Shown piece by piece: positions 14,950 through 39,370 of a stretch of DNA of 39,370 bases. The translations under genes and the position numbers were made by a program. Position 1 is the stretch's first letter; each line of letters begins with the position of its first letter. A model generated the notes under the pieces. The model searched no databases, was not told the DNA's origin, and saw only the letters and a list, made by a program, of their open reading frames with translations. The stretch is from a virus: positions 1 to 39,370 of IMG/VR virus record IMGVR_UViG_3300045988_022530; one strand, written 5' to 3'.

Positions 14950-14953
14950 AGCG

Positions 14954-15789: not shown

Positions 15790-15793
15790 AGGG

Positions 15794-17985: not shown

Positions 17986-18003
17986 TAAAAACGGGAGGTA
18001 AGT

Positions 18004-19941: not shown

Positions 19942-20261
19942 TCGAGATCGTGTACGACCGGATGCGGCTGCGTCTGACGGCTGACGGGCACGCGGGATTC
20001 GCCGAGGCGGGGCAGGACATCGTATGCGCGGCGGTGACGATCCTTGTGTACACGCTGGCGGCCGCCGTGGGCAACATGGACGCCGCCGGGCAGGCCCGCG
20101 GCTCGAGCGTGGAGCTGGGCAGCGGGCACGCCGAGATCGTGTGCGCTGCATCGCCGCGATGGCGCGCGTGCGCGAAGATGATCTGCGACCAGATCTGCGC
20201 GGGATTCGATATCCTGCGGCAGATGTACCCGGAGCGCGTGCGCTACGAGGTGCGCGGATAA
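19938..20261 (+). CDS. prp: Prp-like cysteine protease (ribosomal-processing protease family, DUF464)
   Basis: The GHAGFAEAGQDIVCAAVT signature carries the His/Cys dyad. 107 aa. Head-module position. Confidence 0.8.
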   Translation: MIEIVYDRMRLRLTADGHAGFAEAGQDIVCAAVTILVYTLAAAVGNMDAAGQARGSSVELGSGHAEIVCAASPRWRACAKMICDQICAGFDILRQMYPERVRYEVRG

Positions 20262-20278
20262 AAAATTTTCAGAGATCC

Positions 20279-20314
20279 GAGGCCGAGGGATAGAGAAAGC
20301 CCTCGGCCTTTTTG
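20279..20314 (+). terminator. Rho-independent terminator after prp
   Basis: GGCCGAGGG - 10 nt - CCCTCGGCC followed by TTTTT. Confidence 0.75.
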
Positions 20315-20539
20315 TATGCTGGAGGTGCGAGGGTGCAGGGGCTTTCGCGTGTGTACCTCCTTTCTTTTCCCATTTTCCCATCTCCTTTTCTCTTGGCACC
20401 CACGCAGCGGGAGACTGCTGCGTGGGTATCTATGCCGCCGCGAGGCGCGCTGCAGCGATGGACTGCAAGTGCCGGTGCAACTCCGGCCGGCGGCTGACAG
20501 GGTCGTGGCCTACCACAGATTTTTGACGGAGGCATCCTT

Positions 20540-21586
20540 ATGCGATTTGACATCAAGGCACTGGCTATGCTGCATGGCCTGCAGGTGTTCGGCGGCGAAG
20601 GCGGCGCGGGTGGCGCGGCCGGAGGCTCTGCCGGAGCGGGCGCAGGCGCAGATGGTGCAGGTGCTGCGGGCGTAACAGCTCCCGACGCCGGGGAGCGCAT
20701 CCTAACCGGGCTTGGTGTCCCGGCGGACAAGATCAGCAAGCGGTCGAAGGCGCGCGTATCGGCCATGCACCGTGACGATGGGGCAGCGGCAGAGGCGGCG
20801 CAGACGCAGGACGACGCTGCAAATGGCACCGATGACGGGCAGGAAATGCCGAAGCGCCTGACGTGGGACGAGATCATGGCGGATCCCGAGTACAACGAGC
20901 AGGCGCAGAAGATGATGCAGAAGCGGCTGGCAAAGTCGAAGAAGTCCGAGCAGGCGCTCAAGGACCTGGCGCCGGCATTGGAGCTGATGGCGCGCAAGTA
21001 CGGCATCGACGCAGAGGATATCTCCAAGCTGGACGTGCAGGCGCTGAACAAAGCTGTGACCGAGGACAAGGCGTACTACGAGGAGCGGGCGGACGAGCTC
21101 GGCATCCCCGTCGAGGAGGCCATGCGTATCGACCATCTGGAGCGGCGCAACAAACTGCTGGAGCACCAGAACGAGCAGACGCTTGAGCAGCGCAGGCTGC
21201 AGGAGCATTTCGATGGGCTGGTGCAGCAGGCGGCGAAGCTGCAGGAGACGTATCCGGGCTTTGACCTGCAGACGGAGCTGGAAAACCCGGTCTTCGCGCG
21301 GCTGACCGCGCCGGGAAGCCTGGTCAGCGTGGAGGACGCCTACTTTGCCGTGCACCGCAAGGAGATCCAGACGGCGGCGATGCAGGTGGCAGCGCAGAAG
21401 ACCGCGCAGCAGATCAGCAACAGCATCCAGGCCGGGCAGCGCAGGCCGGCAGAGAACGGCAGCGCATCCAAGGCGGCATCCATTTCTGCCCCGGCGACGA
21501 TGTCGCGCGCGAGACGCGACGAGATCAAGCGCCGCATGAACATCGCAGCGGCGAACGGGGAGAAGCTCTATCCCGGCACGTTCTGA
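20540..21586 (+). CDS. Scaffolding protein
   Basis: Gly/Ala-rich N-terminus followed by long charged helical sequence. It lies directly upstream of the major capsid gene. The N-terminal GLQVFG resembles a Prp site. Confidence 0.75.
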   Translation: MRFDIKALAMLHGLQVFGGEGGAGGAAGGSAGAGAGADGAGAAGVTAPDAGERILTGLGVPADKISKRSKARVSAMHRDDGAAAEAAQTQDDAANGTDDGQEMPKRLTWDEIMADPEYNEQAQKMMQKRLAKSKKSEQALKDLAPALELMARKYGIDAEDISKLDVQALNKAVTEDKAYYEERADELGIPVEEAMRIDHLERRNKLLEHQNEQTLEQRRLQEHFDGLVQQAAKLQETYPGFDLQTELENPVFARLTAPGSLVSVEDAYFAVHRKEIQTAAMQVAAQKTAQQISNSIQAGQRRPAENGSASKAASISAPATMSRARRDEIKRRMNIAAANGEKLYPGTF

Positions 21587-21637: not shown

Positions 21638-22744
21638 ATGATCATGAATCTGATTACCAAGCTCGGTCTGCAGCTTTTCGCGGATGCGGGCACGCTGGTC
21701 AACGCGACCGGCAACTACGTCAACGCCTCGACCGGCACGGTGACTGCCTTCTCCGGCACCAACACGCTCGCGCCGGAGCTCAAGACCTTCTACGACACCG
21801 AGCTGCTCGAAAACGCGCGCGCCGAGATGTTCTACGCGCAGTTTGGCAAGAAGCAGGCGCTGCCGAAAAACCACGGCGGCACGGTCGAATGGCGCAAGTG
21901 GAACACCTTTGACAAGGCCAGCAAGCTGACCGAAGGCGTGATCCCGACCGGCCAGAAGTTCGGCGTGACCAAGCTCGAGGGCAGCATCAACCAGTACGGC
22001 ACGTACACCAGCATCACCGACCGCCTGGAGCTGCGCGCCTACGACGACGTGATCCTCGGAGCGACCGAGGAGATGGGCGCGAGCGCCGCAGAGACGCAGG
22101 AAAAGCTCATCCGCGACGCGCTGCTGACCAACACCAACGTGCTCTACTGCGACAACCTCAGCGCGGCCGGCGCGTATATCTCCACGCCGACCTCCTGCGC
22201 CGAGATGGGCGCCGGCGGCGGCACGAGCGCTGCTGACGGCTATGCCTACCTGACGCCGGACATGATCGCCAAGGCGGTCACGAAGATGAAGAAGGACCGC
22301 GTGCCGGCCATCAACGGCAAGTATTACGCTGTGATCCATCCGTCCGTCGCCTACGACCTGCGCAAGTCCAACGAGTGGATTGAGGCGCACAAGTACGCCC
22401 AGCCGGACGAGATCTACAACGGCGAGATCGGCGAGCTGCACGGCGTGCGCTTCATCGAGAACACCTTCGCGCCCGTTCTGACCGGCACGGGCTACAAAAA
22501 CAAGAGCGAAGGCGCGACCTACGCGACCTACTTCTTCGGCAAGGACGCCTTCGGCATCATCGATCCGGAGGGCGGCGCGCTGGAAATGATCGTGCACGAC
22601 AAGTCCGAGATCGGCGGCCCGCTGAACCAGTTCAGCACCATCGGCTACAAGTTCGAGACCAACGGCGCGACCGTGCTGTACACCGAGCGCCTGCTGCGCG
22701 TGATGAGCACGTCTGCTTACAGCGCGACGGACGCCGCCAACTGA
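21638..22744 (+). CDS. Major capsid protein (HK97-fold class) with an N-terminal Prp-type propeptide
   Basis: 368 aa, positioned after the scaffold. N-terminus MIMNLITKLGLQLFA|DAG. Confidence 0.85.
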   Translation: MIMNLITKLGLQLFADAGTLVNATGNYVNASTGTVTAFSGTNTLAPELKTFYDTELLENARAEMFYAQFGKKQALPKNHGGTVEWRKWNTFDKASKLTEGVIPTGQKFGVTKLEGSINQYGTYTSITDRLELRAYDDVILGATEEMGASAAETQEKLIRDALLTNTNVLYCDNLSAAGAYISTPTSCAEMGAGGGTSAADGYAYLTPDMIAKAVTKMKKDRVPAINGKYYAVIHPSVAYDLRKSNEWIEAHKYAQPDEIYNGEIGELHGVRFIENTFAPVLTGTGYKNKSEGATYATYFFGKDAFGIIDPEGGALEMIVHDKSEIGGPLNQFSTIGYKFETNGATVLYTERLLRVMSTSAYSATDAAN

Positions 22745-23515: not shown

Positions 23516-25513
23516 ATGCCGACATATCCGACGATTCAGGAAACGGCACGCTCGCAGCAGGTGACGGATACCTTCGGCGGCTACAACCACAACCTCAAGA
23601 TCCCCGAGGGGGAATTTTATGAGATGGAGAATCTGTGCGGCGACGATTACCCGCTGCTGGCAAACCGTGACCGGCGCGACACGGTGCTTGGCAACCTGAA
23701 CAACCTGAACGCCATGACGGTGCGAAACGGATCGCTGTATTACATTGCCGGGGTGGACAGCGACCCCGGCAAGACGATGACCGGGCTGTACTGCGACGGA
23801 GAAAAGGTGATGGAGCTGGCATTCACGGGGCGGAAAAAGCTCGTGAACATGGGCGCGTACCTGCTCATCTGGCCGGACAAGGTGTGGTACAACACGGCGG
23901 ACGGCACGCACGGGAACATGGAGAAACTGTTTTCCGCTGCGGCCGGGACGTATCTGTTTTCGGAGACGAACGCCGTTTCCGGCCCGGACGGGCAGGAGAC
24001 GACCACGGTCTATGCCATATGGCTGGTGGAGCCGTGCAGCCGGGACGGGAAGACCGTGTACACGACGAGTGAGACGCACAGCGTGACCTTCGGCAGCAAC
24101 CGCACGGTGATGCAGGACGGGATCACCTACTACTATCTCAACAGCAACAAACCATCCGCGCCGAAAAACGGGGACGCATACATCGACAACGAGACGCGAA
24201 CGCCATATGTCTACAGCGACACGGAGAAGGACTGGGTGGCGCGGGATGTGCCGGTGATGCGGCTCAAATGCAAGGGGATCGGCAGCGGCTTCGCGCCCGA
24301 GGACTATGTGAAGATCTCGTATGTGGACACGAGCACGGACTTCGGCCTGCTCGGCGGGGATAACCTTGCGGACGGTACGTACCGCGCGGTGCTGGCCGCT
24401 GGGGACGATTACCTCGTGCTGGACGCCTATGCGCCGAAGGTCGCGGTGCGGTATTACATCGACGAGACGCCGCCGGGCGTATACGTCAAGGCGGCGATGG
24501 ATCTGCCGGATATGGACTACGTCATCGAGGCGCAGAACCGCCTCTGGGGCTGCAAGTACGGCACGGTGAACGGGAAACTTGTCAACGAGATCTACGCCAG
24601 CGCGCTCGGCCGCTTCGACATCTGGAAGCAGTACGCGGGCGTGAGCACGGACAGCTACGCGGCGTCCGTCGGCTCTGACGGCCGGTGGACGGGCGCGGTG
24701 AACTACCAGGGCAGCCCACTGTTTTTTAAGGAAAACCGGATGCACAAGGTGTATGTGTCCGCGAGTGGCGCACACAGGATTCAGGAGTACACGATGCGCG
24801 GCGTGCAGCCGGGATGTGCAAGGAGCCTCGCGGTGGTCAACGGCGTGCTGTTTTACAAGGCGCGCGACGGCGTGTTCGCCTACGACGGAAGCGGCGCGCC
24901 GATTGACGTTGGCGAAAAGCTGAACCTGAAAGAGCTGCACTGGAGCGGGAACATGAGCGCAATCGCTTCGGCGTGGCGCGACAAATACTACCTGTATCTG
25001 CAGATGAGCACGCCTCCGGGAAACCGGCTGCTGGTGCTGGACACGAGCCGGGGCACATGGTATCGGGAGAGCCTGCCAGTAGGCGGTGTTGTGGACTTCG
25101 CAGAGCTGGAAGGAACGCTGCTGTGCGCGACGAGCGGAGACGTGCTGGAGATTGCGCGCGACCAGACGCTGGCCTTTCGAGCGAGCGGCACGACGGAGGA
25201 CACGGTGGCATGGAGCTGTGAGACGGGGCTGATCGGTTACAGCACGGTGGAGCAGAAATACGTCAGCCGGTTCAACATCCGCATGAGCCTCGCGCGGGAT
25301 GCGTACATGGATGTGCTCGTGCAGTATGACTCCGACGGTGTGTGGCACAACCAGGGCCGCATCCAGGGTGTGGGAACGCGCACGTTCATGCTGCCAGTGC
25401 GGCCGAGGCGCTGCGACCACTTCCGCATCCGGCTCGAGGGCAGCGGGGACGTGCGCATCTACAGCTTCGCAAAGATATTCGAGGCGGGGAGCGATGTGTA
25501 TGCTGACATTTGA
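23516..25513 (+). CDS. Large virion structural protein (putative tail/nozzle component)
   Basis: 665 aa, beta-rich and aromatic-rich sequence. SD GAGGGAGGG. No enzymatic motif seen. Confidence 0.6.
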   Translation: MPTYPTIQETARSQQVTDTFGGYNHNLKIPEGEFYEMENLCGDDYPLLANRDRRDTVLGNLNNLNAMTVRNGSLYYIAGVDSDPGKTMTGLYCDGEKVMELAFTGRKKLVNMGAYLLIWPDKVWYNTADGTHGNMEKLFSAAAGTYLFSETNAVSGPDGQETTTVYAIWLVEPCSRDGKTVYTTSETHSVTFGSNRTVMQDGITYYYLNSNKPSAPKNGDAYIDNETRTPYVYSDTEKDWVARDVPVMRLKCKGIGSGFAPEDYVKISYVDTSTDFGLLGGDNLADGTYRAVLAAGDDYLVLDAYAPKVAVRYYIDETPPGVYVKAAMDLPDMDYVIEAQNRLWGCKYGTVNGKLVNEIYASALGRFDIWKQYAGVSTDSYAASVGSDGRWTGAVNYQGSPLFFKENRMHKVYVSASGAHRIQEYTMRGVQPGCARSLAVVNGVLFYKARDGVFAYDGSGAPIDVGEKLNLKELHWSGNMSAIASAWRDKYYLYLQMSTPPGNRLLVLDTSRGTWYRESLPVGGVVDFAELEGTLLCATSGDVLEIARDQTLAFRASGTTEDTVAWSCETGLIGYSTVEQKYVSRFNIRMSLARDAYMDVLVQYDSDGVWHNQGRIQGVGTRTFMLPVRPRRCDHFRIRLEGSGDVRIYSFAKIFEAGSDVYADI

Positions 25514-27529: not shown

Positions 27530-28882
27530 ATGGCAAAGAAAAATTACAACGGTGTCGAGTTTGACGACAGCGTGGATTATGCCGCGCTGATGGGGAAGGC
27601 TGCTGCTGCCGGGAACAACGAGAAGGCAGCCGTCCTGGAACGAAAGCGCAACGCGAAGATCCAGTCCGGCGGCATGGACTACGAGACGACAAACCAGTAC
27701 GCGCAGTACCTGCCGAAGGTGGACACGCCGTATGACACACAGACGGACTACGCCGCCCTGATGGGGAAGGCTGCGGCCTCCGGAGACTACACGAGCGCGG
27801 CCCGGTACGAAAAGCAGCGCAACGCGAAGATCAAGGGCGAGGGCCTTGACTACGAGACGAGCGATTACTACTCGAAGTACCTGCCCGAGAACCGGTATAC
27901 CTACGACCCAAGCAAGAACGACGCATACCAGCGCGCGAACGATCAGGCGACGGAGATTTACGACAAGATCATGAACCGCGGCGAGTTTTCCTATGACGTG
28001 AACAAGGACAAGCTCTACCAGCAGTACCGCGATCTGTACGCGCAGATGGGGCGCGGCGCGATGGAGGACACCATGGGGCAGGCGGCGGCGCTGACCGGGG
28101 GCTACGGAAGCACCTACAGCCAGAACGCGGGGCAGCAGGCGTATAACGCCTACCTGCAGAAGCTCAACGAGGTCGTGCCTGAGCTGTATAATGCAGCCTA
28201 CAACCGCTACAACCAGGAAGGTCAGAACCTGATGAACCTCTACACCATGGCGCGTAACAACGCCGACAGCGCTTACGAGCGAGACTACAACCAGTGGTAC
28301 AACCGGCTGCAGCTCGAGCGCAGCGACGAGGACACGACCTACAACCGCCAGCAGACCGAGGAGCAGAAGAAGCTCACGCAGGAGGAGACGGATTACGAGC
28401 GCAAGCAGAACGCATGGAGCCGTCTGTCGTCCCTGATCACGACGACCGGGTACCAGCCGTCGAACGAGGAGCTGGCGGCGGCAGGTATGTCTGCCAACGA
28501 GGCGGCGTATCTGCGGCAGTATTACCAGCAGCAGAAGGCAGCAGCGTCAAATAAGAGTGGGGGGTCGGGCGGCGGAAGCAGAAGAAGCAGGAGCAGAAGC
28601 GGGAGCGGATACGGAGGCGGCGGAACGCAGCCGGGGCAGCCGGGTTCACCGTCTCCGTATGCACACAAGCCCGGCAGCGGGATCACGCACAACGACATCG
28701 ACTACACGGACACGAGCGCAGTAAAAGACTCTGCGGCCGTGGCAGGCAGAGTGCGGGAGATGATCAACGAAGGCGTACCGATCGCGGACGTGAATACATT
28801 CATCCGCAGCGCGTCGGAAAACGGCCTGATCTCGGACGACAGCGCCCGCAGGCTGAGATACATGAATAACTCCAGGAAGTGA
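27530..28882 (+). CDS. Virion-module protein with an internal 57-aa tandem repeat, a Q/N/Y-rich core and an RS/GG-rich tract
   Basis: DYAALMGKAAA...RNAKI...DYET...YLP occurs twice (nt 27575 and 27746). The tract SGGSGGGSRRSRSRSGSGYGGGG lies near 28556-28625. Confidence 0.65.
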   Translation: MAKKNYNGVEFDDSVDYAALMGKAAAAGNNEKAAVLERKRNAKIQSGGMDYETTNQYAQYLPKVDTPYDTQTDYAALMGKAAASGDYTSAARYEKQRNAKIKGEGLDYETSDYYSKYLPENRYTYDPSKNDAYQRANDQATEIYDKIMNRGEFSYDVNKDKLYQQYRDLYAQMGRGAMEDTMGQAAALTGGYGSTYSQNAGQQAYNAYLQKLNEVVPELYNAAYNRYNQEGQNLMNLYTMARNNADSAYERDYNQWYNRLQLERSDEDTTYNRQQTEEQKKLTQEETDYERKQNAWSRLSSLITTTGYQPSNEELAAAGMSANEAAYLRQYYQQQKAAASNKSGGSGGGSRRSRSRSGSGYGGGGTQPGQPGSPSPYAHKPGSGITHNDIDYTDTSAVKDSAAVAGRVREMINEGVPIADVNTFIRSASENGLISDDSARRLRYMNNSRK

Positions 28883-28893
28883 GGGGCACATAG

Positions 28894-31800
28894 ATGACAG
28901 TCAAGAAAGCAGCAATCTCCATTGGCGATTGGCTCAAGAGCACGGGATTCTCCGCCGAGAAAACGCTTGCTTCGGCGCAGGAGCAGCGGAAAAACCTGCT
29001 GCAGCAGATGGACAACGCGAATGCATCGTATCTAACCGGCGAGAATCGCGGCGCGCTGCAGAACGCATTTAGCAACTATCAGGCGACCATGAACGTGCTT
29101 CGCGGCGCCGGCTATGACACCGGAAATGACGTCGACGTTCTGCGCAGAGCCGTGCACTCGTCCTTCGACTTCCAGAACCAGTTCAAGGACCAAGACGACT
29201 TCAATGTGTCGTATGCCTACCCGAAGAAATACAAGGGCAAGACCCGCACGGACGTGAATGCGGCGCTCGCGCAGCTCAAGAACACGCCGGGGGCCGAGGC
29301 GGAATATGACTGGCTGAACAAGAACCAGATGAATTACTGGTCTGCGGACGAGCTGAAGGCGCAGATCGGCGCGTGGCAGAACGAGATTTCCGGCATCGAA
29401 CGGCAGCGCCGGAATATGCCGCGCATGGCAGCTGGGAGCACAGACGCAGACTATGCCAAGCGGCAGCAGGAGGCGCTCGCGCTCTCGGGGCAGATCGATG
29501 AGCGAAAAGCGAAGATCGGGAAAGCGCAGAGCCTGCTCACGCGGAAGACCTACGATGACGAGATCAGCAAGTGGGACACGCAGATGCAGAGGGCGCTCTC
29601 TGACTACAGCAAGGCGCTGAGTGTGAGCGAGAGCGCGAACACGGAGATGGCGATGGCCGGAAACTCCGCATTTGTCGTGCAAAACAGCGACTACGCCAAA
29701 AACGCGCGCAACACGGTGCGCAGCTTCGAGCAGCAGCTTCGTGATTACGGCTACAGTGACCAGCAGATCAACGGCATCCGCAGCTATGCGCTCACGCAGC
29801 AGCACGCAAACGAGGCTGCGGAAATGGCACAGCAGGTCGCACAGGAGGCCAAGGAGCATCCGTGGCTGGCCTCCGCCATGTCTGTCGGGACAAATATGAT
29901 GGCCGGAGCGGGTGCGCTCGACATCGCTGCACAGAATGCGCTGAACGGGACGGACCCGTTTACGGGCGAAAAAATGGCCGTCGACCGCTATACGAAATCC
30001 ATGGTGCCGAGCACGGTGACGAACACCATCCGCGGGAGCGTTTCCGAGGACATGAGCGGCATCGGGTCGTTCCTGTACAACACCGGCATGAGCATGGCAG
30101 ACAGCCTGGCAACGCTGGCCATCGGCGGCGCGACCGGCCTGCACGGCGCGGCGGATGTGATCCTCGGCGGCGCGGCGGCATCTCAGGCAATCACGGATGC
30201 GTATGACCGCGGCGCTTCTGACTCGCAGGCCATGTCGGTCGGCCTGCTCTACGGAACGGCCGAAGCACTGTTCGAGCACATCAGCCTGGACAAGCTGCGT
30301 ATGTTCCATACGTCGGCGGCCGCCGGGAAGAAGACCGCGAAGACGCTGGTTAAAGATATGCTCAAGCAGAGCTTTGTGGAAGGCAGCGAGGAAGTCTGCA
30401 CGGACATCGCAAACGTCATCTCCGACGCGATCGTGATGGCCGACAAGAGCGAGATCAACCAGACGATCGCCGCCTATCAGGCAGACGGCATGAGCGAGGA
30501 CGAGGCAACGCGCAGGGCGTGGCTTGACTGGCTCGGCCAGACGGCGCAGGACTTTGCTGGCGGCATGATCTCCGGCGGCATGATGACCGGCGGTGACATG
30601 GCGCTCAACGCCGGGATGCGAAACGCGAATTACCGCGAGACCGGCCGGCAGATCACGGCCAACGACTACGCGGACATCCTCCGCCGCGCTGCAGAGGAAA
30701 GCGGCGACGAAAACATCCGGAAGCTGGCTGGGAAGAAGCAGACAAACCGCAACACCGGCAAGCTCTACGAGGCGACACAGGAAGCAAATCTCACGCAGGC
30801 GGTCTCTGACCGCCTGGGTGCGCTCGGCACGCCAGAAAACGACGTGCAGGAGCTGACCGGCCTCGTGGTCAAGCAGATCAAGGGGCAGGAGCTGACGGGC
30901 AAAGAACAGCGGAAATTTGACGCCAGCAAGCAGGCACAGCGCGCGGCGAGCGAGTATGCGTCCCTGTTCACGCGGGATGCAGACCGGACCACGAACGCAT
31001 GGGCGCGCAGCCATATGCGTGACGCAGCCGAGCTGGAGCGCAACGCGATCTATGGCGGGGCACGCAAGACTGACGCAGGGCAGGCGCAGACACATCAGGC
31101 GGAGAAAAACGCCGAGGTGCAGGTAAACGGTGAGACCGCGCAGGTGCAGGCGCTTCGATATGACCAGGAGAGCGGCAGCGTGGAGCTGTCCGTGAAGGCC
31201 AAAAACGGCGATGTGCAGCGTGTTTCCGTGAAGGACGCCAAGCTGCCGGAGGGCACGCGCCTACTCGCCGAGAGCGCGGAAAAATACGGCGAGACCGCGC
31301 CGCAGATGTACGCCAACTACCAGAACGGGCAGGACGTGGAGCGCTACGCAAGCGCCTACGAGGTGGCATACTCTTACGGACGCGCTGGCGTGAAAAACTA
31401 CGCCGTGCTCGAGAACAGCGGCGCAGCATCGTATCTGACACAGGAGCAGCGGAAATTCGCCTACGAGACCGGCCTTGCCGCGGCGCGCAGGGAATCGGAC
31501 GCAAAGAGCGCGGCGGCCAAGAGCAGCGAAATTCAGGCCGGTAGCGTGACGCTGGAAGGCGGAAAGCTCGGAAACGTGACGCTCGCCGCCGTGAACACGG
31601 CCGGCCTGACGCGCAAGCAGACGGCGTCGATCGACGTGGCACGCAAGGTGGCCGAGGCGACCGGCGTGAACGTCGTGTTCTTTGAATCTCGTTCGGATGA
31701 GAGCGGGCGCTATATCGGCATGAACGGCGCATACCGCGATGGCACGATCTATCTGGACGTCAACGCAGGGAAGAACAACGTGGACACCGGCGAGACGGCC

Positions 31801-34800
31801 ATCCTGAAGACGATGTCGCACGAGCTGACGCACTTCATCCAGCGCAACAGCGGCCAGTATGAAGCACTGAAGGAGTTCGTGGCGAACCATGTGCTCGAGA
31901 GCGGCGACAGCATCGAGCGCCTTGCCCAGCAGAAGATCGACAACGACTCGACCGGCGAGCTGACGATGGACGGCGCGATGGACGAGGTCGTGGCCGATGC
32001 GTGCGAGATGATGCTGCGCAACACCGAGGCCGTGCAGCGGCTGGCGAATGAGAACCGCAGCCTTGCCGAGAAGATCCGCGACTGGATCGGGGATTTTGTC
32101 AAGAAGCTGCGTGCTGCGTTCAAGGGAGACCGCGCGACGCACGACGAGGCGAGAGCCATGCTCGACCGCATGGTGGAGCTGCAGAAGATCTGGGACGATG
32201 CGCTGGTGGACGCGGCGAAGGTGAATGCGGGGCGCGCCGGGGAGATTGCAAGCAACGGCGTGCAGGAATCGTCTCGCGGGAAGTACTGGCGGCCTGACCT
32301 GAATCAGCAGGAATGGTCGCTTTTGAACCGGCGAATGGGAAAAGAACTCGACAGCGGCAAACAATATCTTGACGAATCCACAAAGTGGCTGTACGCTGAA
32401 GAAAAGGGTGTGAAGGTGTTCGCCTTGTACGGGGTGGGAGATGGTACTGAGGCGACCACACTGTATGCGGTCGGCGGAAAACAAGCCGCGCTGCAGAATG
32501 CGAATATTGCAGAATATGTTGAGAGGAGCAGAGAATATGACAGAGATGGACGATCTGTTGATTCGTGGGTTGAGTTGCTTCGGCGTAAGAAAGGGAGCAG
32601 GGGCCGAAATCTATCTCAGGGTCAAGGGCCAACCGGAGCTTCAGGAACGGCTCATGGACTATATGGCGGATCACCGCGAGGCAACGGCGGAAGAACTTCT
32701 GGACGTGGCTCGCAGAATCAGCGCAAAGTAAAAGAGCAGTTCTCCCTCCGCGAACCGGTGGAGCAGGTGCGTGATCTTGTCGCCGTGCATGGCCTGACAG
32801 AGCAGAACCTGCGTGGCGCACTCGCGCTCGGCGGATTGCCGATGCCAAGTATCGCGGTCGTAAAAGCTGTGCAAGGGCACAGCAAGTACGGCCCGATTTC
32901 CATGGTGTTCGGCAGGGAGAGTATTGACCCGCAGGTTGACCCCAGGAACAAAATCTACGGCGGGGATGCCTACACGCCGACGGCACCGGCGGTGGAATAT
33001 CCGGTGAACTACGACCGGATGCGGACCGTCGAAAAACGGCTCGCCAGACTGAGCGGGAAGATTGCGGGCGGCGTATTCCGAAACGGCAGCGCCATGCAGC
33101 GTGCAGGCGTCGGTGAAGAGAGCGGTATGAGCGCGTCGGAGCTGGCGGACAAGCTCTCGCGGGACGACAGCGTGCGCGCGGCCTATCTGGCCGATCGTGG
33201 GGAAACGCTCGAGCCGGTCATGCAGGCAAAGGAATTCAACCGATACGGCAATGACGCGCTGGCAAAACTGGTGCAGAAAATCGGCGTGCAGGAGCTCGCC
33301 CACGTTGAAGCGGACATGGAAACCGGGGACTATCAGTCTGCGCGAGAGATCGAAGACACGGTGCGCCAGATTATCCGCGACAGCTACGAGGAACAGCATC
33401 GCAGATTTCTGGACCGAAAGCCGGAACTGAAGGAAAAGCGGCTTGACCACTTCATGGATAACAATGTCCATACTTCCACGGTTGAGAATTTCATCCGAGA
33501 TGCGTGGGCGTTTTACGAAGATCAGGGTGCTACAGCGGACGAAGTAGACCGATTGGCTACCAGCGACAAATTGCACGAGGCGACGGATACTGAGGACGTG
33601 AAGGCATGGCTGCTGCCACAGCTGAAATCTGTTTTTGGCGAGCCCGGCATTTACAACGGGAAGGAGCGCTATACCGCCTCTGGAGACAGACGCAGCTTTT
33701 CGCAGCTGCATTGGGAATACACGCTCGAGAACATTGTGAGTGCGATGGCGGAAACCCAGAAGGAGCGCGGCGGCCAGACGTGGGGGACGTCGGCAGGAGC
33801 TATGCAGGCTGTCAGCGCCGAGGACTTTTCCAGCATTGATGAAGTGAAGGCCGCGAGCGGCAGGCTCGGCAAAGCGGAAGGCGAGCAGTATGAAGCGGCG
33901 AAGAATGCTGTTGAAAACCTGATCGATCAAGCGACACGCGCCGTTATGCGAGAGACGCGGCCGCACGCCGACAATTCGTTCGATGAAAGAGAAATTATCG
34001 GCGATGTTATGATGGAAGCGGCGAAGGGCAAGCGGACGGCGCGGGCCATTCAGCAGGCTTTTGCGAAAGAGGGATATTCGGTCAGTGAAGAAACTGCTCG
34101 CCGGATTCAAGAAGTGTATAAGGCGGCGGCTGCACTTCCGACGGAATATTTTGAGGCGAAGCCGCAGAGAGCGGTCGGCTTTGACGAGGTGAAAGTGGCC
34201 ATTGTGCCGGACAACATCAACTCCGAGCTGAAAGAGCAGCTTGAAAATATGGGAGTGCCGGTGCAAGTGTACCGCGCTGGTGACGAGGAGCAGCGTCTGC
34301 AGATACTGAACTCGGATAAATCGTGGCAGTTTTCCGAGCGTGACGACACGCGGACAGACCGCGACGTGCTTTCCGACGCCGCGGACGGCGACGCGGCAAA
34401 CGTGCGCGAGATGGAGATGCTGCGCGAGTACCGGGAGAAGCTGCAGAAATACAGCTCGCTCACACGGAGGCTGGAGCAGCAGCGCGAGCTTGCGCAGAAC
34501 GCGGAAAGCAAGGAGGAGCGCCTGAAGGCGAGAAACCGCGCGGACAACCTGGCTGCGCAGGTGAGCCGAGCGGACGCGCAGCTCACGCGGATGCAGAACG
34601 CGAAACCGCTGCGCGAGCTGGTGGCGCGCGAGCTGAAGACGCGCGACAGCCTGGCTAAGGAAAACGCCATGCTGCGCGACCGCGTGGAGTATTTGCGTGG
34701 GCAGATGCAGCGCACGAAAGAGGCAACCACAGACCCGAAAGCCGTGCGGGAAGCCGCAAAGGATATCATTGAGCGGACCGGCAGCAGCATCGGCGTGGAC

Positions 34801-37800
34801 GAGGTGATGAGCCAGCTGCAGGAGCTGTACGACGGCATTGCCCGCGCGACCGGAGACAACGGGCTTACCTACGCGGAGATTCAGCAGCGCGCGGACGATC
34901 TCGCACACGACATTTTGAACGACGTGACTGCCGTTGACGACACGATGTACCGCGAGTATGAAGACCTGCGGAGGTATTTCAAGGGTCAGCAGCTCGTCGT
35001 GTCCGCGGCTGACCGCGGGGAAATTCCGGACTTCGGAGATTTCCGACGGAGAAACATGGGCCGAATGCGGCTGAAAAACGGCGAGCGGACGAACGTTGAC
35101 CAGGTTTACGCAGAGCTGAGTGAGCTGTACCCAGAATTCTTTGACCAGAACCGCGAGAGCCAGCCGAGCGACCAGCTATACCGCATTGCCGATGTGCTGG
35201 ACGCGGTGTACTCCGTGAACGAGTACAACCCAAACGCGCAGTATATGCGCGAAGCGACGCAGAGTGTGAGCAACGAGATCCTTGAGCAGTTTTTCGACCT
35301 GCCGCAGCAGAGAACGTTTGCCGACCGGCAGGCGAAGAAGGACGAACAGCAGAAGACGCACTACCTCAACCAGATCAACGAGCTGCGCAAGGCCAATGAC
35401 ACGCGCATCGCGGAGCTGCGGGCGCAGAACCGCAAACGGCTGCAGGAAGCCATAGCAAGAGAGCGCGAGAAACGCGACGAGCAGATTGCGCGGCTGAAAG
35501 AGCACTATGACGAGCGGGACGCAGCCGATAAGGCACGTAGGGAGGAAAGCGCGGCAGTGGCGAAATACCGCCCGCGCATCGAGCAGAAGGCGAAGCGCCT
35601 GAGCGATTGGCTGCTGAAAAACAGCGACAAGGAACACATCCCGGAGCCGTTGAAGCTGGCGGTAGGCGAGTTCCTGGAATCCATCGACTTTACGAGTAAG
35701 AGGGCGCTGGACGGCGGCGCGCTGACGAAAAAGGACATTCGGCGTTCGCTCCGGTATACTGACCGGATGCAGAAGCTGCTGGACAGACTGCGCGGGCAGA
35801 ACGATGACGGGACGAACGACCTCGGACTGTATCTGGACATCCCGGATGGATTCCTCGAGGAGATGCAGAAGCACATCAACACTGCGTCCGACATCGTCAG
35901 CCAGAACCCAGGCGAGAACGTTGTAAACCGGATGAGCGGAGAGCAACTGCAGCAGCTCGACCAGATGCTCACGATCCTGACGCGCAGCATCCAAAACGCG
36001 AACAAGCTCAAGGCCAACGCACACTTTGAGACCGCACGGCAGGCGGCACAGGCGACGGTGCTGGAGCTCGACCGGCTGGGTCAGGCCAAAGGCAGAACGA
36101 AGGCTGGGGAAAAGGCGGCCGGTTTCTTCAACTGGGAGAACACGACGCCGTACTATGCTTTCCAGCGCTTCGGCGAGGGCGGCAAGGCGATCTTCGAGGC
36201 GCTTTCCGACGGCTGGGACAAGATGGCCTTCAACACGAAGGCGGTCATGGACTTCACGGAGCAGACCTACACGCCGAAGGAAGTGAAGGCGTGGGCAAAG
36301 GAAACGCACACGTTTAAGCTCGAGAGCGGCGAGAGCGTGAGGATGACGACCGCACAGATGATGGCGTTCTACTGCCTGTCGAAGCGCGAGCAGGCCGCCG
36401 GCCATCTGCTCGGCGGCGGTATGCGCGTGGAGGACATCCAGAACAGCGGGCGCAAGGAAAACGTCAAGCAGCCGGATCCGTTCCTGCTGACGCAGGAGGA
36501 CATCTCCGCGATCAATGGCGCGCTTACCAAGCGCCAGCGCGAGGTGGCGGACAAACTGCAGAAGTACATGAACGATCAGGGCGGCGCGTGGGGCAACCGT
36601 GTGTCGATGGAGCGCTTCGGATACCGCGCGTTCACGGAGGAGAACTACTTCCCCATCGAGACGATGGACTCCAACCGCGACGCGAAAGACCCTGGCGCGA
36701 AAGAGAACGACATGTTCCGCCTGCTGAATATGTCCGCGACGAAGAGCCTCGTCTACAAGGCAAACAACGCGCTCGTTGTACGCGACATCTTCGACGTGTT
36801 CAGCAACCACATGGCTGACATGGCGAAGTATGACGCGCTGGCGCTGCCGATCCTCGACGCGATGAAGTGGTACAACTACCGCGAGAAGCAGAAGCTCGAG
36901 AACGGCCACGTGCTCACGACGACGGTACAGCGGTCGATTGAAAAGGCATACGGAATGGATGCCAACAAGTATTTCACGACGTTCATCAAAGACCTGAACG
37001 GCGTGAACGAAGGCGGCCGCGGGGAGGGCTTCGCAAAGAAGATGCTCTCCAACTACAAGGTGGCGGCCGTGGCTGCGAACCTGCGCGTGGCGCTGCTGCA
37101 GCCGACGGCGTATGTGCGTGCGGTCGGTGTGATGAGCCCGAAGTATCTCGCAAAGGCGTTTACGGAGGGAAAGAGCGCCTACAAAGAGGCAGAGGCTAAC
37201 AGCGGCATCGCGCTGTGGAAGCAGATGGGCTTCTACGACACGAACATCGGTAGGGGTGTCCGCGACCAGATCAAGAACGCCGGGACGTGGAAGGACTCGA
37301 CGGTCGAATTCCTTATGAAAGGCGCAGAATGGGCAGACCGGCTGACGTGGGGGCGCTTGTGGAACGCCTGCAAAGCGGAGGTGCGTGACAAGCAGAAACT
37401 GACCGGCGACGCGCTGCTGAAGGCGACGGCCGAACGCTTCCGCGAGGTCATCTACTCGACGCAGGTGGTGGACAGCACGATGACACGCAGCCAGGCAATG
37501 CGCGCGACCGGTGTGTACGGTGCTGTATCTACGGCCTTTATGTCGGAACCGACGCTGTCGTACAACCTCTTGCTCAAGGCGTACACGGACTACACGGCTG
37601 AGCTGCGCGCGACCGGCGACAAAAAAGAAGCGTGGAGAAACGCAAGCGGGAAAATTGCAAGAGCGCTGGCGACCTATCTTGTGTCGGCGGCTGCTTCGGG
37701 GCTTGCCGAATCAATCGTGGACGCCTGCAGAGACGACGACGAGTACGCCACGTGGCTGGAGAAGTACCTGAGCGCGCTGATCGGCGCGAAATACAAAGAC

Positions 37801-39030
37801 GGGAAGTTTTCCGGCGTGAACCCGCTTGAAAGCAACCTGTTCATGGACGTGGATATCCTCTCGAAGCTCCCGATCCTCAAGGATTTCATGTCGATGATCT
37901 CCGGGTACGAAAACGACCGGATGGACACGGAATGGATCAGCAACCTGATCGATGCGTATCGGATCTGGGACGAGACGATCAAGCTGGAGACCGGCGAACT
38001 GGACGAGCCGACGGACGTGACGTACAACGGCAACATGACGCTGTACGGAAAGATCTACAAGACACTCAAGGCCGTCTCACAGGCGACCGGTCTGCCGATC
38101 AGCGCGGCGAGCCGCGAGGCAGTAACGCTCTGGAACACCATCGCCGGAGCTGTCGGCAAGGGCGACGAGTGGACGATCCACACCTATGACTCCGGGCCGG
38201 AGAGCCAGATCAAGTACGGTCTGATGGACGGCTATCTCACGCGCGAAGAGGCGCAGCAGCTGCTGGTCGACAAAGGACTCGCGGACGACGAGAATGAAGC
38301 GTACTGGAAGGTTGACAAGTGGGCGACCGGCGAAGGAAAGTACGACGAGGCGCTCGCTGCGGTGCTCAGCGGAGACAAGGCCGCCTTCGATGCGCAGGCC
38401 AAGGAGCTGAAAGAGCACGGCATCGGCGAGAAACAGCTGCAGTCTGCGGTACGCTCGCAGGCGAAGGAGTGGTACGTCGGCGACGACGACGGAAAGCGCT
38501 CGATCACGAAGGAGCAGGCGCTGAAGATCCTGCAGCAGTACGGAGGGAAAGACGCCGACGAGGCGCAGAAACTGGTGCAGAAGTGGACGTGCGAGGTCGT
38601 GACCGGCACGGACTACGACGACATCAAGGATCTGTATCTCGATGGGAAGCTCACGCGGTCTCGCGCGGTAGATATGCTGACGCGCTACGGCGGGATGAAG
38701 CAGGAGGACGCGCAGAACAAGATCGACACGGCGGACTTTGTGAAGGCACATCCGGAATGCGACGGCATCAGCGTTGAGGCCGTGCAGAAGTACAACGAGC
38801 AGGCGAAACCGGCCGGTATGGACGCGGGGACGTTCTGGGAAGCGTACCAGTTCAAGAACGACGCAAGGACGACGCGCGACAGCAACGGCAAGGCCATCAG
38901 CGGCCAGGGAGCAATGGACAAGGTCACTGCATATATTGACGGGCTGGACCTTAGCAGAGAGCAGAAAAACGCGCTGTTCCTGTGCTTCTACAGCCAGACC
39001 TCGCTCAATAAGATCCGCTGGAGCAATTAA
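28894..39030 (+). CDS. Giant multi-domain virion protein (3378 aa), polyvalent-protein-like, with a zincin HExxH module
   Basis: Uninterrupted 10,137-nt ORF with SD GAGGGG. Gly-rich hydrophobic segments, HELTH at 31819-31833, long coiled coils and C-terminal tandem repeats. It is the last gene of the virion operon. Confidence 0.85.
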   Translation: MTVKKAAISIGDWLKSTGFSAEKTLASAQEQRKNLLQQMDNANASYLTGENRGALQNAFSNYQATMNVLRGAGYDTGNDVDVLRRAVHSSFDFQNQFKDQDDFNVSYAYPKKYKGKTRTDVNAALAQLKNTPGAEAEYDWLNKNQMNYWSADELKAQIGAWQNEISGIERQRRNMPRMAAGSTDADYAKRQQEALALSGQIDERKAKIGKAQSLLTRKTYDDEISKWDTQMQRALSDYSKALSVSESANTEMAMAGNSAFVVQNSDYAKNARNTVRSFEQQLRDYGYSDQQINGIRSYALTQQHANEAAEMAQQVAQEAKEHPWLASAMSVGTNMMAGAGALDIAAQNALNGTDPFTGEKMAVDRYTKSMVPSTVTNTIRGSVSEDMSGIGSFLYNTGMSMADSLATLAIGGATGLHGAADVILGGAAASQAITDAYDRGASDSQAMSVGLLYGTAEALFEHISLDKLRMFHTSAAAGKKTAKTLVKDMLKQSFVEGSEEVCTDIANVISDAIVMADKSEINQTIAAYQADGMSEDEATRRAWLDWLGQTAQDFAGGMISGGMMTGGDMALNAGMRNANYRETGRQITANDYADILRRAAEESGDENIRKLAGKKQTNRNTGKLYEATQEANLTQAVSDRLGALGTPENDVQELTGLVVKQIKGQELTGKEQRKFDASKQAQRAASEYASLFTRDADRTTNAWARSHMRDAAELERNAIYGGARKTDAGQAQTHQAEKNAEVQVNGETAQVQALRYDQESGSVELSVKAKNGDVQRVSVKDAKLPEGTRLLAESAEKYGETAPQMYANYQNGQDVERYASAYEVAYSYGRAGVKNYAVLENSGAASYLTQEQRKFAYETGLAAARRESDAKSAAAKSSEIQAGSVTLEGGKLGNVTLAAVNTAGLTRKQTASIDVARKVAEATGVNVVFFESRSDESGRYIGMNGAYRDGTIYLDVNAGKNNVDTGETAILKTMSHELTHFIQRNSGQYEALKEFVANHVLESGDSIERLAQQKIDNDSTGELTMDGAMDEVVADACEMMLRNTEAVQRLANENRSLAEKIRDWIGDFVKKLRAAFKGDRATHDEARAMLDRMVELQKIWDDALVDAAKVNAGRAGEIASNGVQESSRGKYWRPDLNQQEWSLLNRRMGKELDSGKQYLDESTKWLYAEEKGVKVFALYGVGDGTEATTLYAVGGKQAALQNANIAEYVERSREYDRDGRSVDSWVELLRRKKGSRGRNLSQGQGPTGASGTAHGLYGGSPRGNGGRTSGRGSQNQRKVKEQFSLREPVEQVRDLVAVHGLTEQNLRGALALGGLPMPSIAVVKAVQGHSKYGPISMVFGRESIDPQVDPRNKIYGGDAYTPTAPAVEYPVNYDRMRTVEKRLARLSGKIAGGVFRNGSAMQRAGVGEESGMSASELADKLSRDDSVRAAYLADRGETLEPVMQAKEFNRYGNDALAKLVQKIGVQELAHVEADMETGDYQSAREIEDTVRQIIRDSYEEQHRRFLDRKPELKEKRLDHFMDNNVHTSTVENFIRDAWAFYEDQGATADEVDRLATSDKLHEATDTEDVKAWLLPQLKSVFGEPGIYNGKERYTASGDRRSFSQLHWEYTLENIVSAMAETQKERGGQTWGTSAGAMQAVSAEDFSSIDEVKAASGRLGKAEGEQYEAAKNAVENLIDQATRAVMRETRPHADNSFDEREIIGDVMMEAAKGKRTARAIQQAFAKEGYSVSEETARRIQEVYKAAAALPTEYFEAKPQRAVGFDEVKVAIVPDNINSELKEQLENMGVPVQVYRAGDEEQRLQILNSDKSWQFSERDDTRTDRDVLSDAADGDAANVREMEMLREYREKLQKYSSLTRRLEQQRELAQNAESKEERLKARNRADNLAAQVSRADAQLTRMQNAKPLRELVARELKTRDSLAKENAMLRDRVEYLRGQMQRTKEATTDPKAVREAAKDIIERTGSSIGVDEVMSQLQELYDGIARATGDNGLTYAEIQQRADDLAHDILNDVTAVDDTMYREYEDLRRYFKGQQLVVSAADRGEIPDFGDFRRRNMGRMRLKNGERTNVDQVYAELSELYPEFFDQNRESQPSDQLYRIADVLDAVYSVNEYNPNAQYMREATQSVSNEILEQFFDLPQQRTFADRQAKKDEQQKTHYLNQINELRKANDTRIAELRAQNRKRLQEAIAREREKRDEQIARLKEHYDERDAADKARREESAAVAKYRPRIEQKAKRLSDWLLKNSDKEHIPEPLKLAVGEFLESIDFTSKRALDGGALTKKDIRRSLRYTDRMQKLLDRLRGQNDDGTNDLGLYLDIPDGFLEEMQKHINTASDIVSQNPGENVVNRMSGEQLQQLDQMLTILTRSIQNANKLKANAHFETARQAAQATVLELDRLGQAKGRTKAGEKAAGFFNWENTTPYYAFQRFGEGGKAIFEALSDGWDKMAFNTKAVMDFTEQTYTPKEVKAWAKETHTFKLESGESVRMTTAQMMAFYCLSKREQAAGHLLGGGMRVEDIQNSGRKENVKQPDPFLLTQEDISAINGALTKRQREVADKLQKYMNDQGGAWGNRVSMERFGYRAFTEENYFPIETMDSNRDAKDPGAKENDMFRLLNMSATKSLVYKANNALVVRDIFDVFSNHMADMAKYDALALPILDAMKWYNYREKQKLENGHVLTTTVQRSIEKAYGMDANKYFTTFIKDLNGVNEGGRGEGFAKKMLSNYKVAAVAANLRVALLQPTAYVRAVGVMSPKYLAKAFTEGKSAYKEAEANSGIALWKQMGFYDTNIGRGVRDQIKNAGTWKDSTVEFLMKGAEWADRLTWGRLWNACKAEVRDKQKLTGDALLKATAERFREVIYSTQVVDSTMTRSQAMRATGVYGAVSTAFMSEPTLSYNLLLKAYTDYTAELRATGDKKEAWRNASGKIARALATYLVSAAASGLAESIVDACRDDDEYATWLEKYLSALIGAKYKDGKFSGVNPLESNLFMDVDILSKLPILKDFMSMISGYENDRMDTEWISNLIDAYRIWDETIKLETGELDEPTDVTYNGNMTLYGKIYKTLKAVSQATGLPISAASREAVTLWNTIAGAVGKGDEWTIHTYDSGPESQIKYGLMDGYLTREEAQQLLVDKGLADDENEAYWKVDKWATGEGKYDEALAAVLSGDKAAFDAQAKELKEHGIGEKQLQSAVRSQAKEWYVGDDDGKRSITKEQALKILQQYGGKDADEAQKLVQKWTCEVVTGTDYDDIKDLYLDGKLTRSRAVDMLTRYGGMKQEDAQNKIDTADFVKAHPECDGISVEAVQKYNEQAKPAGMDAGTFWEAYQFKNDARTTRDSNGKAISGQGAMDKVTAYIDGLDLSREQKNALFLCFYSQTSLNKIRWSN
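32537..32731 (+). CDS. Nested 64-aa ORF in an alternative frame inside the giant gene
   Basis: SD GAGAGGAG lies 8 nt before the ATG. Product MTEMDDLLIRGLSCFGVRKGAGAEIYLRVKGQPELQERLMDYMADHREATAEELLDVARRISAK. Hand-counted GC3 is about 64% in this frame against about 39% in the giant-gene frame. The giant frame is G/R/S low complexity here. Confidence 0.5.
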   Translation: MTEMDDLLIRGLSCFGVRKGAGAEIYLRVKGQPELQERLMDYMADHREATAEELLDVARRISAK

Positions 39031-39035
39031 ATTCG

Positions 39036-39066
39036 GGGGAGGGATAGAAATATTCCTCCCTTATTT
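39036..39066 (+). terminator. Terminator after the giant gene
   Basis: GGGAGG - 12 nt - CCTCCC followed by TTATTT. The stem is short. Confidence 0.5.
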
Positions 39067-39106: not shown

Positions 39107-39178
39107 ATGACAATCACAATCGCAGACTGGCGTGGGGCGCTGTGGCAGTGGGACACTGGCGGCTGTGGAGGTAACTGA
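39107..39178 (+). CDS. Micro-ORF (23 aa, Trp-rich) upstream of the endolysin
   Basis: SD GAAGGGAGG lies 7 nt before the ATG. Encodes MTITIADWRGALWQWDTGGCGGN. The stop is 16 nt before the endolysin ATG. Confidence 0.35.
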   Translation: MTITIADWRGALWQWDTGGCGGN

Positions 39179-39194
39179 ATAAGGAGGGCACAAG

Positions 39195-39370
39195 ATGATA
39201 GAATTTGTTTCTTGCAATCTGTCAAATTTCCGCGCCGGGCGCACGCAGCCGGTGCGGTACATTGTGATGCACTACACGGCAAACAACGGCGACACCGCGC
39301 GCAACAACTGCGACTACTACCACCGCGTGGGCGGCCTGCAGGCCAGCGCGCACTATTTCGTTGACGAGCA
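39195..39370 (+). CDS. 5' part of the endolysin gene (continues at position 120 of the window via the circular junction)
   Basis: SD AAGGAGGG lies 6 nt before the ATG at 39195. The ATG is in frame with 39252, which equals position 1. Confidence 0.85.
   Translation, partial: MIEFVSCNLSNFRAGRTQPVRYIVMHYTANNGDTARNNCDYYHRVGGLQASAHYFVDE
39252..39370. repeat. Terminal overlap, copy 2 (identical to 1-119)
   Basis: Same 119-nt string as the window start. Confidence 0.95.

Follow-up and report, generated by a model that had tools for sequence, protein, structure and literature searches.

Phages are predicted to use polyvalent proteins as one of their main ways of delivering counter-defence enzymes together with their DNA, and almost none of these proteins has, to our knowledge, been studied experimentally. 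Their domain set was defined for proteins that are delivered with DNA, and large PBECR-bearing representatives in virion contexts are predicted to be packaged and injected, and to be cut into functional units by a zincin (Iyer, Burroughs, Anand, de Souza & Aravind 2017; PMC5512222). Here we analyse the window, a stretch of viral DNA of 39,370 nucleotides (nt; positions 1 to 39,370 of IMG/VR record IMGVR_UViG_3300045988_022530), and in particular a single open reading frame (ORF) in it that encodes a protein of 3378 amino acids (aa). An earlier note, made from the sequence alone, had proposed that this giant protein is an injected polyvalent virion protein. Our results make it likely that it is a phage-type polyvalent protein, built of a conserved chassis and an exchangeable payload, which is packaged and delivered with the DNA. 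As it belongs to a large family with a fixed chassis, a sharply bounded, swappable payload and isolate-borne members that might be induced, it offers a practical test system, in which packaging, processing and the target countered by each cassette can be addressed.

Several described systems invite comparison. The virion RNA polymerase of phage N4, a protein of 3500 aa, is encapsidated and injected, and N4-like phages typically have genomes larger than 39 kb. P1, a myovirus, packs the large enzymes DarB and DdrB into its head and delivers them along with its DNA, while P22 and T7 keep their ejection or core genes at the end of the structural genes. The N4 polymerase has been counted as a polyvalent protein with a zincin, and the C-terminal zincin of P1 DdrB is thought to self-process (PMC5512222). 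In MuF polymorphic toxins, variable effector modules, including PBECR and MuF_C, are carried by a conserved carrier (PMC5576092), and podoviruses such as Pectobacterium phage PhiM1 keep their ejectosome or core proteins inside the capsid until these are ejected and span the cell envelope (PMC11440229). Finally, the prophages phi1 and phi4 of Clostridium clostridioforme LM41 carry ORFs of ~8 kb at their 3' end, which make up ~20% of the genome, have limited similarity to LPD3 and are proposed to help establish the incoming DNA (PMC11318856).

The anatomy of the giant protein was derived from BLAST and hidden Markov model (HMM) mapping, three multiple alignments and two AlphaFold2 (AF2) models, which cover aa 1-1150 and 2200-3378. 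For comparison, we used 54 homologous loci fetched from species-representative genomes, all on independent Clostridia contigs, and 132 family representatives of at least 2000 aa each with a pairwise identity of at most 50%. The chassis consists of an N-terminal block, with a helical, a Gly-rich and a zincin-like part, and of a C-terminal constant module followed by repeats; the exchangeable payload lies between them (Table 1). Wherever a zincin was found among the 132 representatives, it precedes the constant module, with 233-2424 aa between the two.

The payload of the giant protein contains its sole above-threshold Pfam match, a PBECR5 domain (PF18814; 214.5 bits against a gathering cutoff of 25, E=2.7e-63, profile positions 2-223 of 239). 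PBECR5 was originally described in polyvalent proteins, with endoribonuclease activity given as a prediction (PMC5512222), and the domain found here is likewise predicted to be a metal-independent endoribonuclease of the BECR fold. It forms the first ~230 residues of a conserved unit of ~530 aa (aa 1284-1812), in which K1324, H1329, S1336, D1345, T1361 and T1363, as well as R1600, H1606, E1612, E1754, K1756 and R1759, are invariant in eight homologues. The earlier note had delimited a large domain between the motifs QFSLRE and QFSERD, which turns out to be this unit, and it had seen no RNA polymerase, helicase or methylase motifs, in agreement with our Pfam and PDB sequence searches. Upstream of the unit, the variable region comprises a small domain (aa ~1140-1230) and a Gly/Arg-rich linker (aa ~1230-1280). 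With PBECR5 and the zincin-like domain upstream of it, the giant protein has at least two effector or enzymatic domains; its homologues carry the polyvalent domain vocabulary at the same position, with mosaicism, and its gene lies late, in the virion operon. On all these counts, the resemblance to polyvalent proteins holds.

Within the N-terminal block, the first 289 residues are lineage-specific, being common by BLAST only to the closest relative, L006; AF2 models them with a pLDDT (predicted local distance difference test) of ~80 for aa 20-170, compared with 64 for the whole N-terminal model. The Gly-rich domain that follows is characterized by the motifs GSFLYNTGMSMAD ... EGSEE ... AGGxxSGG and found in 110 of the 132 representatives; a homologue search with this domain alone returned just four matches. 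AF2 renders it as long helices with low confidence, and its Gly-rich segments (aa ~330-600) reach a maximal 19-aa Kyte-Doolittle mean of 1.26, which is below transmembrane grade. A small β domain then precedes the zincin-like domain within aa ~740-1112. Here, H976, E977 and H980 of the HExxH motif are invariant and E1031 nearly so in an alignment of 13 giant ORFs, and all four residues are invariant in alignment A4. E1031, the putative third ligand, belongs to an EVVAD motif about 50 residues past HExxH, and in the model the HExxH helix comes after β strands, as it does in zincins. The domain is present in 104 of the 132 representatives, with HExxH in 99 of these. Its Pfam matches are all below threshold (E 0.002-0.1; eCIS_core, DUF5700, DUF6782 and Tox-MPTase2) and do not include MPTase-PolyVal, a profile search of the domain against the PDB gave no match, and Foldseek found nothing significant for the N-terminal model in the PDB. 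The helical N-terminus, the Gly-rich hydrophobic segments and the zincin-type HExxH module listed in the earlier note are all present, the segments with the hydrophobicity just given.

Nowhere is the family more conserved than in the constant module. This module contains some 60 invariant positions, many of them polar, including H2639, N2729, R2731, Q2736, R2742 and K2776 as well as D2815, Q2857, D2860, R2870, E2885 and R2946, and AF2 predicts an all-α structure with three small β hairpins (pLDDT 83, predicted template modelling score 0.70). It matches PHROG 22978, a family of unknown function, and has no match in Pfam or NCBIfam; in a profile search against the PDB, the best real match has E>0.1, the others being designed helical proteins only, and the best Foldseek match in the PDB is not significant (E=0.09). 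In BFVD, by contrast, the module has 81 significant matches, all of them C-terminal pieces of giant proteins from uncultured phages that are annotated by their other domains (MuF_C, nuclease, PolyVal ART or LPD). An exhaustive profile search yielded homologues in 6567 cluster representatives at E<=1e-3 and in 4224 at E<=1e-30, mostly from animal or human gut contigs of Clostridia type; among the 150 best-scoring representatives, most are 2000-4800 aa long and have the module at their C-terminus. Because the domain is large, conserved and confidently modelled, and has neither a solved nor a curated relative, it is an obvious target for structural and functional work.

The repeats at the C-terminus follow the pattern Y..DG.lT...A...L..yGG....EAq.kv and end in a tail of the form D.NG...SG..K...YI..L.L...QK.AL. 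They occur in 126 of the 132 representatives and are helical in the AF2 model (pLDDT ~90), and their self-alignment scores 56 against a null of 20 +/- 4.5 (null maximum 39), so the helical repeats named in the earlier note are real. Other parts of its account of the C-terminal half had to be revised. The ~400 aa of coiled coil prove not to be continuous: there are two separate charged runs free of Pro and Gly, aa 1833-1904 and 2138-2226, with a globular stretch between them, and the spacer in which most of this lies is found by BLAST in only 19 of the 54 relatives. The ~1100 aa without recognizable motif do lack a Pfam or PDB match, but they correspond to the constant, family-defining module rather than to a hiding place of new activities; it is the central ~700 aa that harbour the variable activities. 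Structure prediction, which the earlier note had suggested for parsing the domains, gave no significant fold match in the PDB for either of the two modelled parts. The giant protein and its upstream partner are also without a match when searched against the PDB with phmmer, and both, like the 665-aa protein described below, are without a match in NCBIfam.

That the payload is exchangeable can be seen at the DNA level. In L006, L003 and L005, the DNA is 89-95% identical to the window up to aa ~1110, just past the last zincin helix, and again from aa 1813-1815, whereas nothing is alignable in the 2.1 kb between aa ~1110 and 1813; homology resumes at nt 34330-34338, exactly on QFSERD. The central modules of these three close relatives are different ones, namely MuF_C with PBECR5, ART-PolyVal, and an LPD3-like with a methyltransferase-like module. 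By BLAST, the central segment of the giant protein recurs in only one of the 54 giant ORFs. Among 27 family members scanned with Pfam, the central region holds ART-PolyVal, LPD1, LPD3, MuF_C or PBECR5 domains, helicases of the Sno, SNF2 and ResIII types, and C5 or Eco57I-type methylases, and PBECR3 is also among the domains found at this position in homologues. These comparisons suggest that related phages swap payload cassettes by recombination between fixed chassis blocks. L006 is 93% identical to the giant protein over its C-terminal third, with 92-95% identical DNA over the shared flanks; its contig, 71 kb long, belongs to an Oscillospiraceae metagenome-assembled genome (MAG) from the human gut. 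In its own central region (~6800-8840, aa ~1100-1790 of its giant protein), two LPD3-like repeats flank a methyltransferase-like segment with a DVGGG motif, and each of these mosaic pieces is bounded by FSER[DE].

QFSLRE and QFSERD are copies of one junction motif, [FY]SxR[DE], which is usually preceded by a polar low-complexity linker. Across the 132 representatives, it was observed 71 times, compared with 16.8 +/- 4.0 in shuffled sequences, at a density per 1000 aa of 0.49 in the variable region versus 0.03 in either chassis part. The motif marks cassette boundaries; it may be a site of proteolysis, serve as a landmark for recombination or form the strand with which each cassette begins. It occurs in 41 of the 104 zincin-positive proteins and in 3 of the 28 zincin-negative ones. 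We also considered processing by the Prp protease encoded in the virion module and rejected it, as the giant protein has no LQxF site, and the only similar site, EQFF (aa 2132-2135), is not conserved in relatives. This site coincides with the start of stand-alone homologues.

A second gene is conserved along with that of the giant protein. In 41 loci, the gene immediately upstream encodes the same partner, which has 450 aa in the window, a conserved core rich in Gln, Asn and Tyr, and no match in Pfam, PHROGs or the PDB. Its N-terminus contains a tandem repeat, DYAALMGKAAA...KRNAKI...DYET..Y..YLP, present twice. In six loci with homologous portal and major capsid proteins (MCPs; 50-77% identity), the gene order is TerL-portal-Prp-partner-GIANT-scaffold-MCP. 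Because the pair thus lies between the portal/Prp and the scaffold/capsid genes, its placement within the head block argues for a head-internal protein. The window has a different arrangement, with the giant gene not beside the portal but at the end of the structural operon, as the earlier note had also described it. The virion module, all on the + strand, starts with TerS, TerL, a P22-like portal, a Prp-type cysteine protease of 107 aa, a scaffold-like protein and the MCP, continues with two small proteins, the 665-aa protein, fibre-like proteins and the 450-aa partner, and closes with the giant ORF.

From these data we infer RNase and peptidase activity, packaging, ejection, processing at junctions and anti-defence action. 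The giant protein would be synthesized late, together with its partner, and be incorporated inside the capsid near the portal via the constant chassis, to exit alongside the DNA through the short tail when the phage infects. Inside the newly infected cell, the PBECR5 payload would then attack host or defence-related RNA and, more speculatively, the zincin may cut at [FY]SxR[DE] junctions to free modules.

A number of points weigh against this reading. For the zincin, no curated peptidase family in Pfam scored above threshold, and no solved zincin came up with Foldseek. The invariant H1329, S1336, T1361 and T1363 are alignment-based candidates for the catalytic His and Ser/Thr of the BECR fold. 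No relationship of the constant module to MuF, T7 gp14-16, the P22 ejection proteins or the N4 polymerase could be detected, and its role in packaging and ejection is presumed from its position and constancy. The junction motif is found in only about 40% of the family, and its association with the zincin may reflect shared ancestry. In the window, the giant gene adjoins the lysis cassette, where accessory genes also accumulate, and a single polypeptide is not obligatory, as a close relative encodes it in two ORFs of 1795 and 1938 aa. Lastly, the presence of the giant protein, and of all other family members, in virions is a prediction from the genes.

The strongest rival explanation holds that the protein is primarily structural, an ejectosome or internal core in which the Gly-rich and all-α modules form, together with the partner, the trans-envelope conduit required for a short-tailed phage to get past S-layer, peptidoglycan and membrane, while the cassette is a secondary passenger. 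This fits a phage with a P22-like portal, whose scanned genes gave no match to a tape measure, a tail tube or other ejection proteins, and in which the gene pair occupies the position of the ejection or core genes of P22 and T7. It also fits the chassis being far more conserved than the payload, the PBECR5-bearing giants of Acinetobacter phage Ab9 and Cobetia phage Carin1, which follow internal-virion or lysozyme genes, and the weak, non-significant Foldseek matches of the N-terminal model, which are mostly membrane proteins and α-pore-forming toxins. Yet no solved ejectosome or core protein was found to resemble it in sequence or fold, its hydrophobicity stays below that of transmembrane segments, a peptidoglycan hydrolase domain was not found, and the BFVD matches include contigs labelled as myo- and siphoviruses, even if such labels are unreliable. 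We therefore regard a primarily structural role as unlikely, though it takes most of the probability left by the polyvalent reading, with which it overlaps and from which it differs in the function held to be essential. A combination of both is a tentative proposal that we find possible but doubtful: the chassis and the 450-aa partner may constitute an undescribed protein-delivery platform of short-tailed Clostridia phages, doubling as an ejectosome and equipped with plug-in cassettes that lie between [FY]SxR[DE] junctions, where the zincin would cut after entry and so release the effectors. If true, it would be the phage counterpart of the cargo logic of polymorphic toxins and extracellular contractile injection systems (eCIS), with thousands of metagenomic variants.

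It is improbable that the giant protein is a weapon resembling polymorphic toxins, released with or on particles at lysis against competing bacteria, as proposed for MuF toxins, and not in aid of the phage's own infection. A variable RNase or ART module on a conserved carrier and the rapid replacement of cassettes do resemble these systems (PMC5576092), and the sub-threshold zincin matches eCIS_core and Tox-MPTase2 are domains of toxin systems. However, the variable part is central rather than C-terminal, the ORF is followed by a hairpin, a 23-codon ORF and lysis genes instead of an immunity-like gene, and the payloads of many relatives, such as helicases and methylases, are of a counter-restriction type and not toxins. 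Improbable, too, is a late intracellular factor that is not packaged and acts, for example, in host takeover, in superinfection exclusion or in the handling of DNA while particles assemble. The gene does lie beside the lysis cassette here, and packaging is deduced, but six relatives have it within the head-gene block, the domain vocabulary is common to proteins defined by virion context (PMC5512222), and a soluble late enzyme would hardly account for so large and so conserved a chassis.

The giant ORF itself shows every sign of a genuine gene. Over its span, the other two sense frames contain 113 and 90 stops, from which (~3% stops per codon) we calculate a chance of ~e^-100 for an open frame of this length, and the G+C content by codon position (0.61/0.41/0.79) shows strong coding periodicity. 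Because a Shine-Dalgarno-like GAGGGG lies 8 nt 5' of the ATG, the upstream gene stops just 11 nt before it, and a terminator-like stem-loop follows the stop, the giant gene appears as the unit that closes the structural operon. A single polypeptide is the rule in the family, with exceptions. L003 and L004, from two different samples (10001-21201 in each), represent a 93%-identical relative in which the gene is split into two overlapping ORFs; the break lies ~45 codons past a QFSLRE junction, within a small LPD3-like module, and may reflect a genuine frameshift, a decayed gene (pseudogene) or recoding that is programmed. In the relative L002, the polyvalent gene comprises three ORFs of 1195, 506 (MuF_C and ART-PolyVal) and 1182 aa, and an AcrVA2-like gene lies just past the lysis genes (15166-16224). 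One stand-alone version of the C-terminal module, of ~1200-1300 aa, was confirmed in its genomic context, and other matches of 966-1201 aa on contigs of ~38-45 kb may be stand-alone too. The weakest reading, that ordinary genes appear fused through an artefact of assembly or annotation, a possibility which the earlier note had raised, is effectively refuted: despite the split gene in two samples, the ORF keeps one frame with uniform codon periodicity, an independent, 93% identical MAG contig has an intact ORF of 3337 aa, 53 further contigs bring the uninterrupted homologues to 54 loci (2146-4520 aa), and 132 representatives of at least 2000 aa were found.

The ends of the window overlap by an exact 119-bp direct repeat (1-119 = 39252-39370), and because of this overlap we consider it a circularly assembled and probably complete genome of 39,251 bp, of which the giant ORF takes up 25.8%, in line with the 26% of the earlier note. 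The phage is temperate and podovirus-like, with a host probably among gut Oscillospiraceae. Since none of the genes scanned matches a tape measure, a tail tube or a sheath, the particle is probably short-tailed, and the SLH domain of the amidase points to an S-layer-bearing host of Gram-positive type. The family occurs in MAGs of Oscillospiraceae, Lachnospiraceae, Ruminococcaceae and other Clostridia from humans and ruminants, and a member is also present in the cultured lysogen Waltera intestinalis WCA3-601-WT-6H (locus L054, NZ_VUMU01000002.1); in the INPHARED collection, near-identical phage DNA was not found, and tblastn gave fragments only.

Among the neighbouring genes, the Prp-type protease (PF04327, E=5e-12) directly follows the portal, and the N-termini of the capsid protein, MIMNLITKLGLQLF|ADAG, and the scaffold-like protein, MRFDIKALAMLHGLQVF|GGEG, resemble the Prp cleavage motif F|A of L27 and 80alpha (LQxF|A/G). 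The 665-aa protein is kept in 28 related loci; over its C-terminal half it has a match (E=1.9e-51) to PHROG 511, annotated as 'internal virion protein', and Pfam gave no match. Its sequence looks β-rich, so it may belong to a tail or nozzle and not to the core. The YqaJ/RecT pair could, speculatively, drive short-homology exchanges at cassette borders. The overall G+C content is ~60%, and two islands (window ~3000-5000 and ~12000-14500) have 0.49-0.53 compared with ~0.62 elsewhere, which may reflect regulatory regions or recent gene acquisitions.

Table 1. Features of the giant ORF, its neighbours in the window and two isolate-borne giants used for comparison
Feature	Residues	Nucleotides	Strand	Remarks
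Giant ORF, 3378 aa + stop	1-3378	28894..39030	+	ATG at 28894, TAA ends 39030, no internal stop
N-terminal helical region	1-289	28894..29760	+	all helices in AF2
Gly-rich, moderately hydrophobic helical domain	~290-600	29761..30693	+	alignment consensus
Zincin-type metallopeptidase-like domain	~880-1112	31531..32229	+	conserved HExxH + Glu
HExxH	976-980	31819-31833	+
Variable central cassette region	~1113-1812	32230..34329	+	DNA comparison with L006, L003, L005
PBECR5 domain	1281-1509	32734..33420	+	Pfam PF18814
Junction motif copy 1, QFSLRE	1282-1287	32737..32754	+	start of PBECR5 unit
Junction motif copy 2, QFSERD	1812-1817	34327..34344	+	right breakpoint of swapped cassette
Spacer	1813-2140	34330..35313	+	charged long helix, ~200-aa globular part, start of second charged helix
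Constant C-terminal module, ~950 aa	~2141-3100	35314..38193	+	alignments A1, A3, A5
C-terminal helical repeats + tail	3101-3378	38194..39027	+	self-alignment
Terminator-like 12-bp stem-loop + T-rich tail		39035..39062	+	begins 5 nt past giant ORF stop
Co-conserved upstream partner gene, 450 aa	core ~130-260	27530..28882	+	directly 5' of giant ORF
23-codon ORF		39108-39179		between terminator-like hairpin and amidase
Amidase_2 endolysin		39195-39370 wrapping to 120-813		C-terminal SLH domain
Hol44-type holin		1090-1410
Tyrosine integrase		1703-2851	-
C5 cytosine methylase, 586 aa		5673-7433
YqaJ exonuclease / RecT recombinase pair		7573-8649, 9330-10163
Prp protease, scaffold-like protein and MCP genes		19938-20261, 20540-21586, 21638-22744	+
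665-aa protein		23516-25513	+
Acinetobacter phage Ab9 CDS0016, 2839 aa		L083 3268-11787		annotated hypothetical, PHROG 9880
Cobetia phage Carin1 gp32, 2854 aa		L084 4271-12835		annotated hypothetical, PHROG 9880

How, then, does this locus compare with the systems introduced above? With podovirus ejectosome proteins such as T7 gp14-16 and those of PhiM1, the giant protein shares its large size, its mostly helical build, its place at the end of the structural genes and the context of a short-tailed phage, but unlike them it has no lytic transglycosylase or lysozyme domain. As searches of Pfam, PHROG, the PDB and Foldseek returned no homology of the T7 gp14-16 or P22 gp7/16/20 type and no cell-wall hydrolase domain, the analogy is one of position only. 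A tail tape measure can be rejected, given the lack of a Pfam or PHROG match, the P22-like portal and the scanned genes without a tail-tube or sheath match. The N4 polymerase, too, is a giant single polypeptide of a short-tailed phage, with terminal domains around a central catalytic payload. An N4-like polymerase is nevertheless rejected here, as no homology to RNA polymerases was found in Pfam, in PDB sequences or, for the two modelled parts, in the PDB by Foldseek, and the genome, at 39 kb, is unlike those of N4-like phages. Some relatives carry methylase and helicase payloads like those of P1 DarB, whereas the payload here is a predicted RNase, and no homology to DarB or DdrB was detected.

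The likeness to MuF proteins and SPP1 gp7 lies in the variable effectors on a conserved carrier and, in the six relatives, in the slot between portal and scaffold. In contrast to them, the payload is central and not C-terminal, there is no immunity gene and the protein is ten times larger; a Phage_Mu_F domain is found neither in the giant protein nor in the 27 scanned relatives or the precomputed Pfam annotations. The giants of Ab9 and Carin1 hold the same PBECR5 unit of ~500 aa (E=5e-42 and 1e-34 with our own unit HMM) and an HExxH motif, and each makes up ~21-22% of a genome of ~39-40 kb, Carin1 being a published podovirus. The Ab9 giant follows annotated internal virion protein genes and a lysozyme gene, that of Carin1 tail nozzle and lysozyme genes. 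Unlike the window protein, both have a different chassis and the order PBECR5 then zincin, with no Gly-rich domain, no junction motif and no detectable constant module (hhalign against Ab9, probability 0.2%).

The ORFs of the LM41 prophages are likewise outsized, belong to Clostridia prophages and lie at the end of the structural region; we liken them by description, and the report on them gives no domain architecture (PMC11318856). Because these ORFs have been reported with LPD3 similarity and with the same proposed role, the giant protein falls within the already described polyvalent class and is not a new kind of system. It shares with polyvalent proteins the combination of several effector-type domains in one giant polypeptide (here PBECR5 and zincin; in its relatives also ART-PolyVal, LPD1/3, MuF_C, helicases and methylases), the late or virion gene context and the strong mosaicism between orthologues. 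Unlike them, however, it has a zincin without an above-threshold Pfam metallopeptidase model, a fixed two-part chassis, and a module of ~950 aa and a Gly-rich domain that match no Pfam family, the LPD families included. What may be new within the class is therefore the defined chassis with its large constant module outside Pfam and the PDB, the partner gene and the junction motif.

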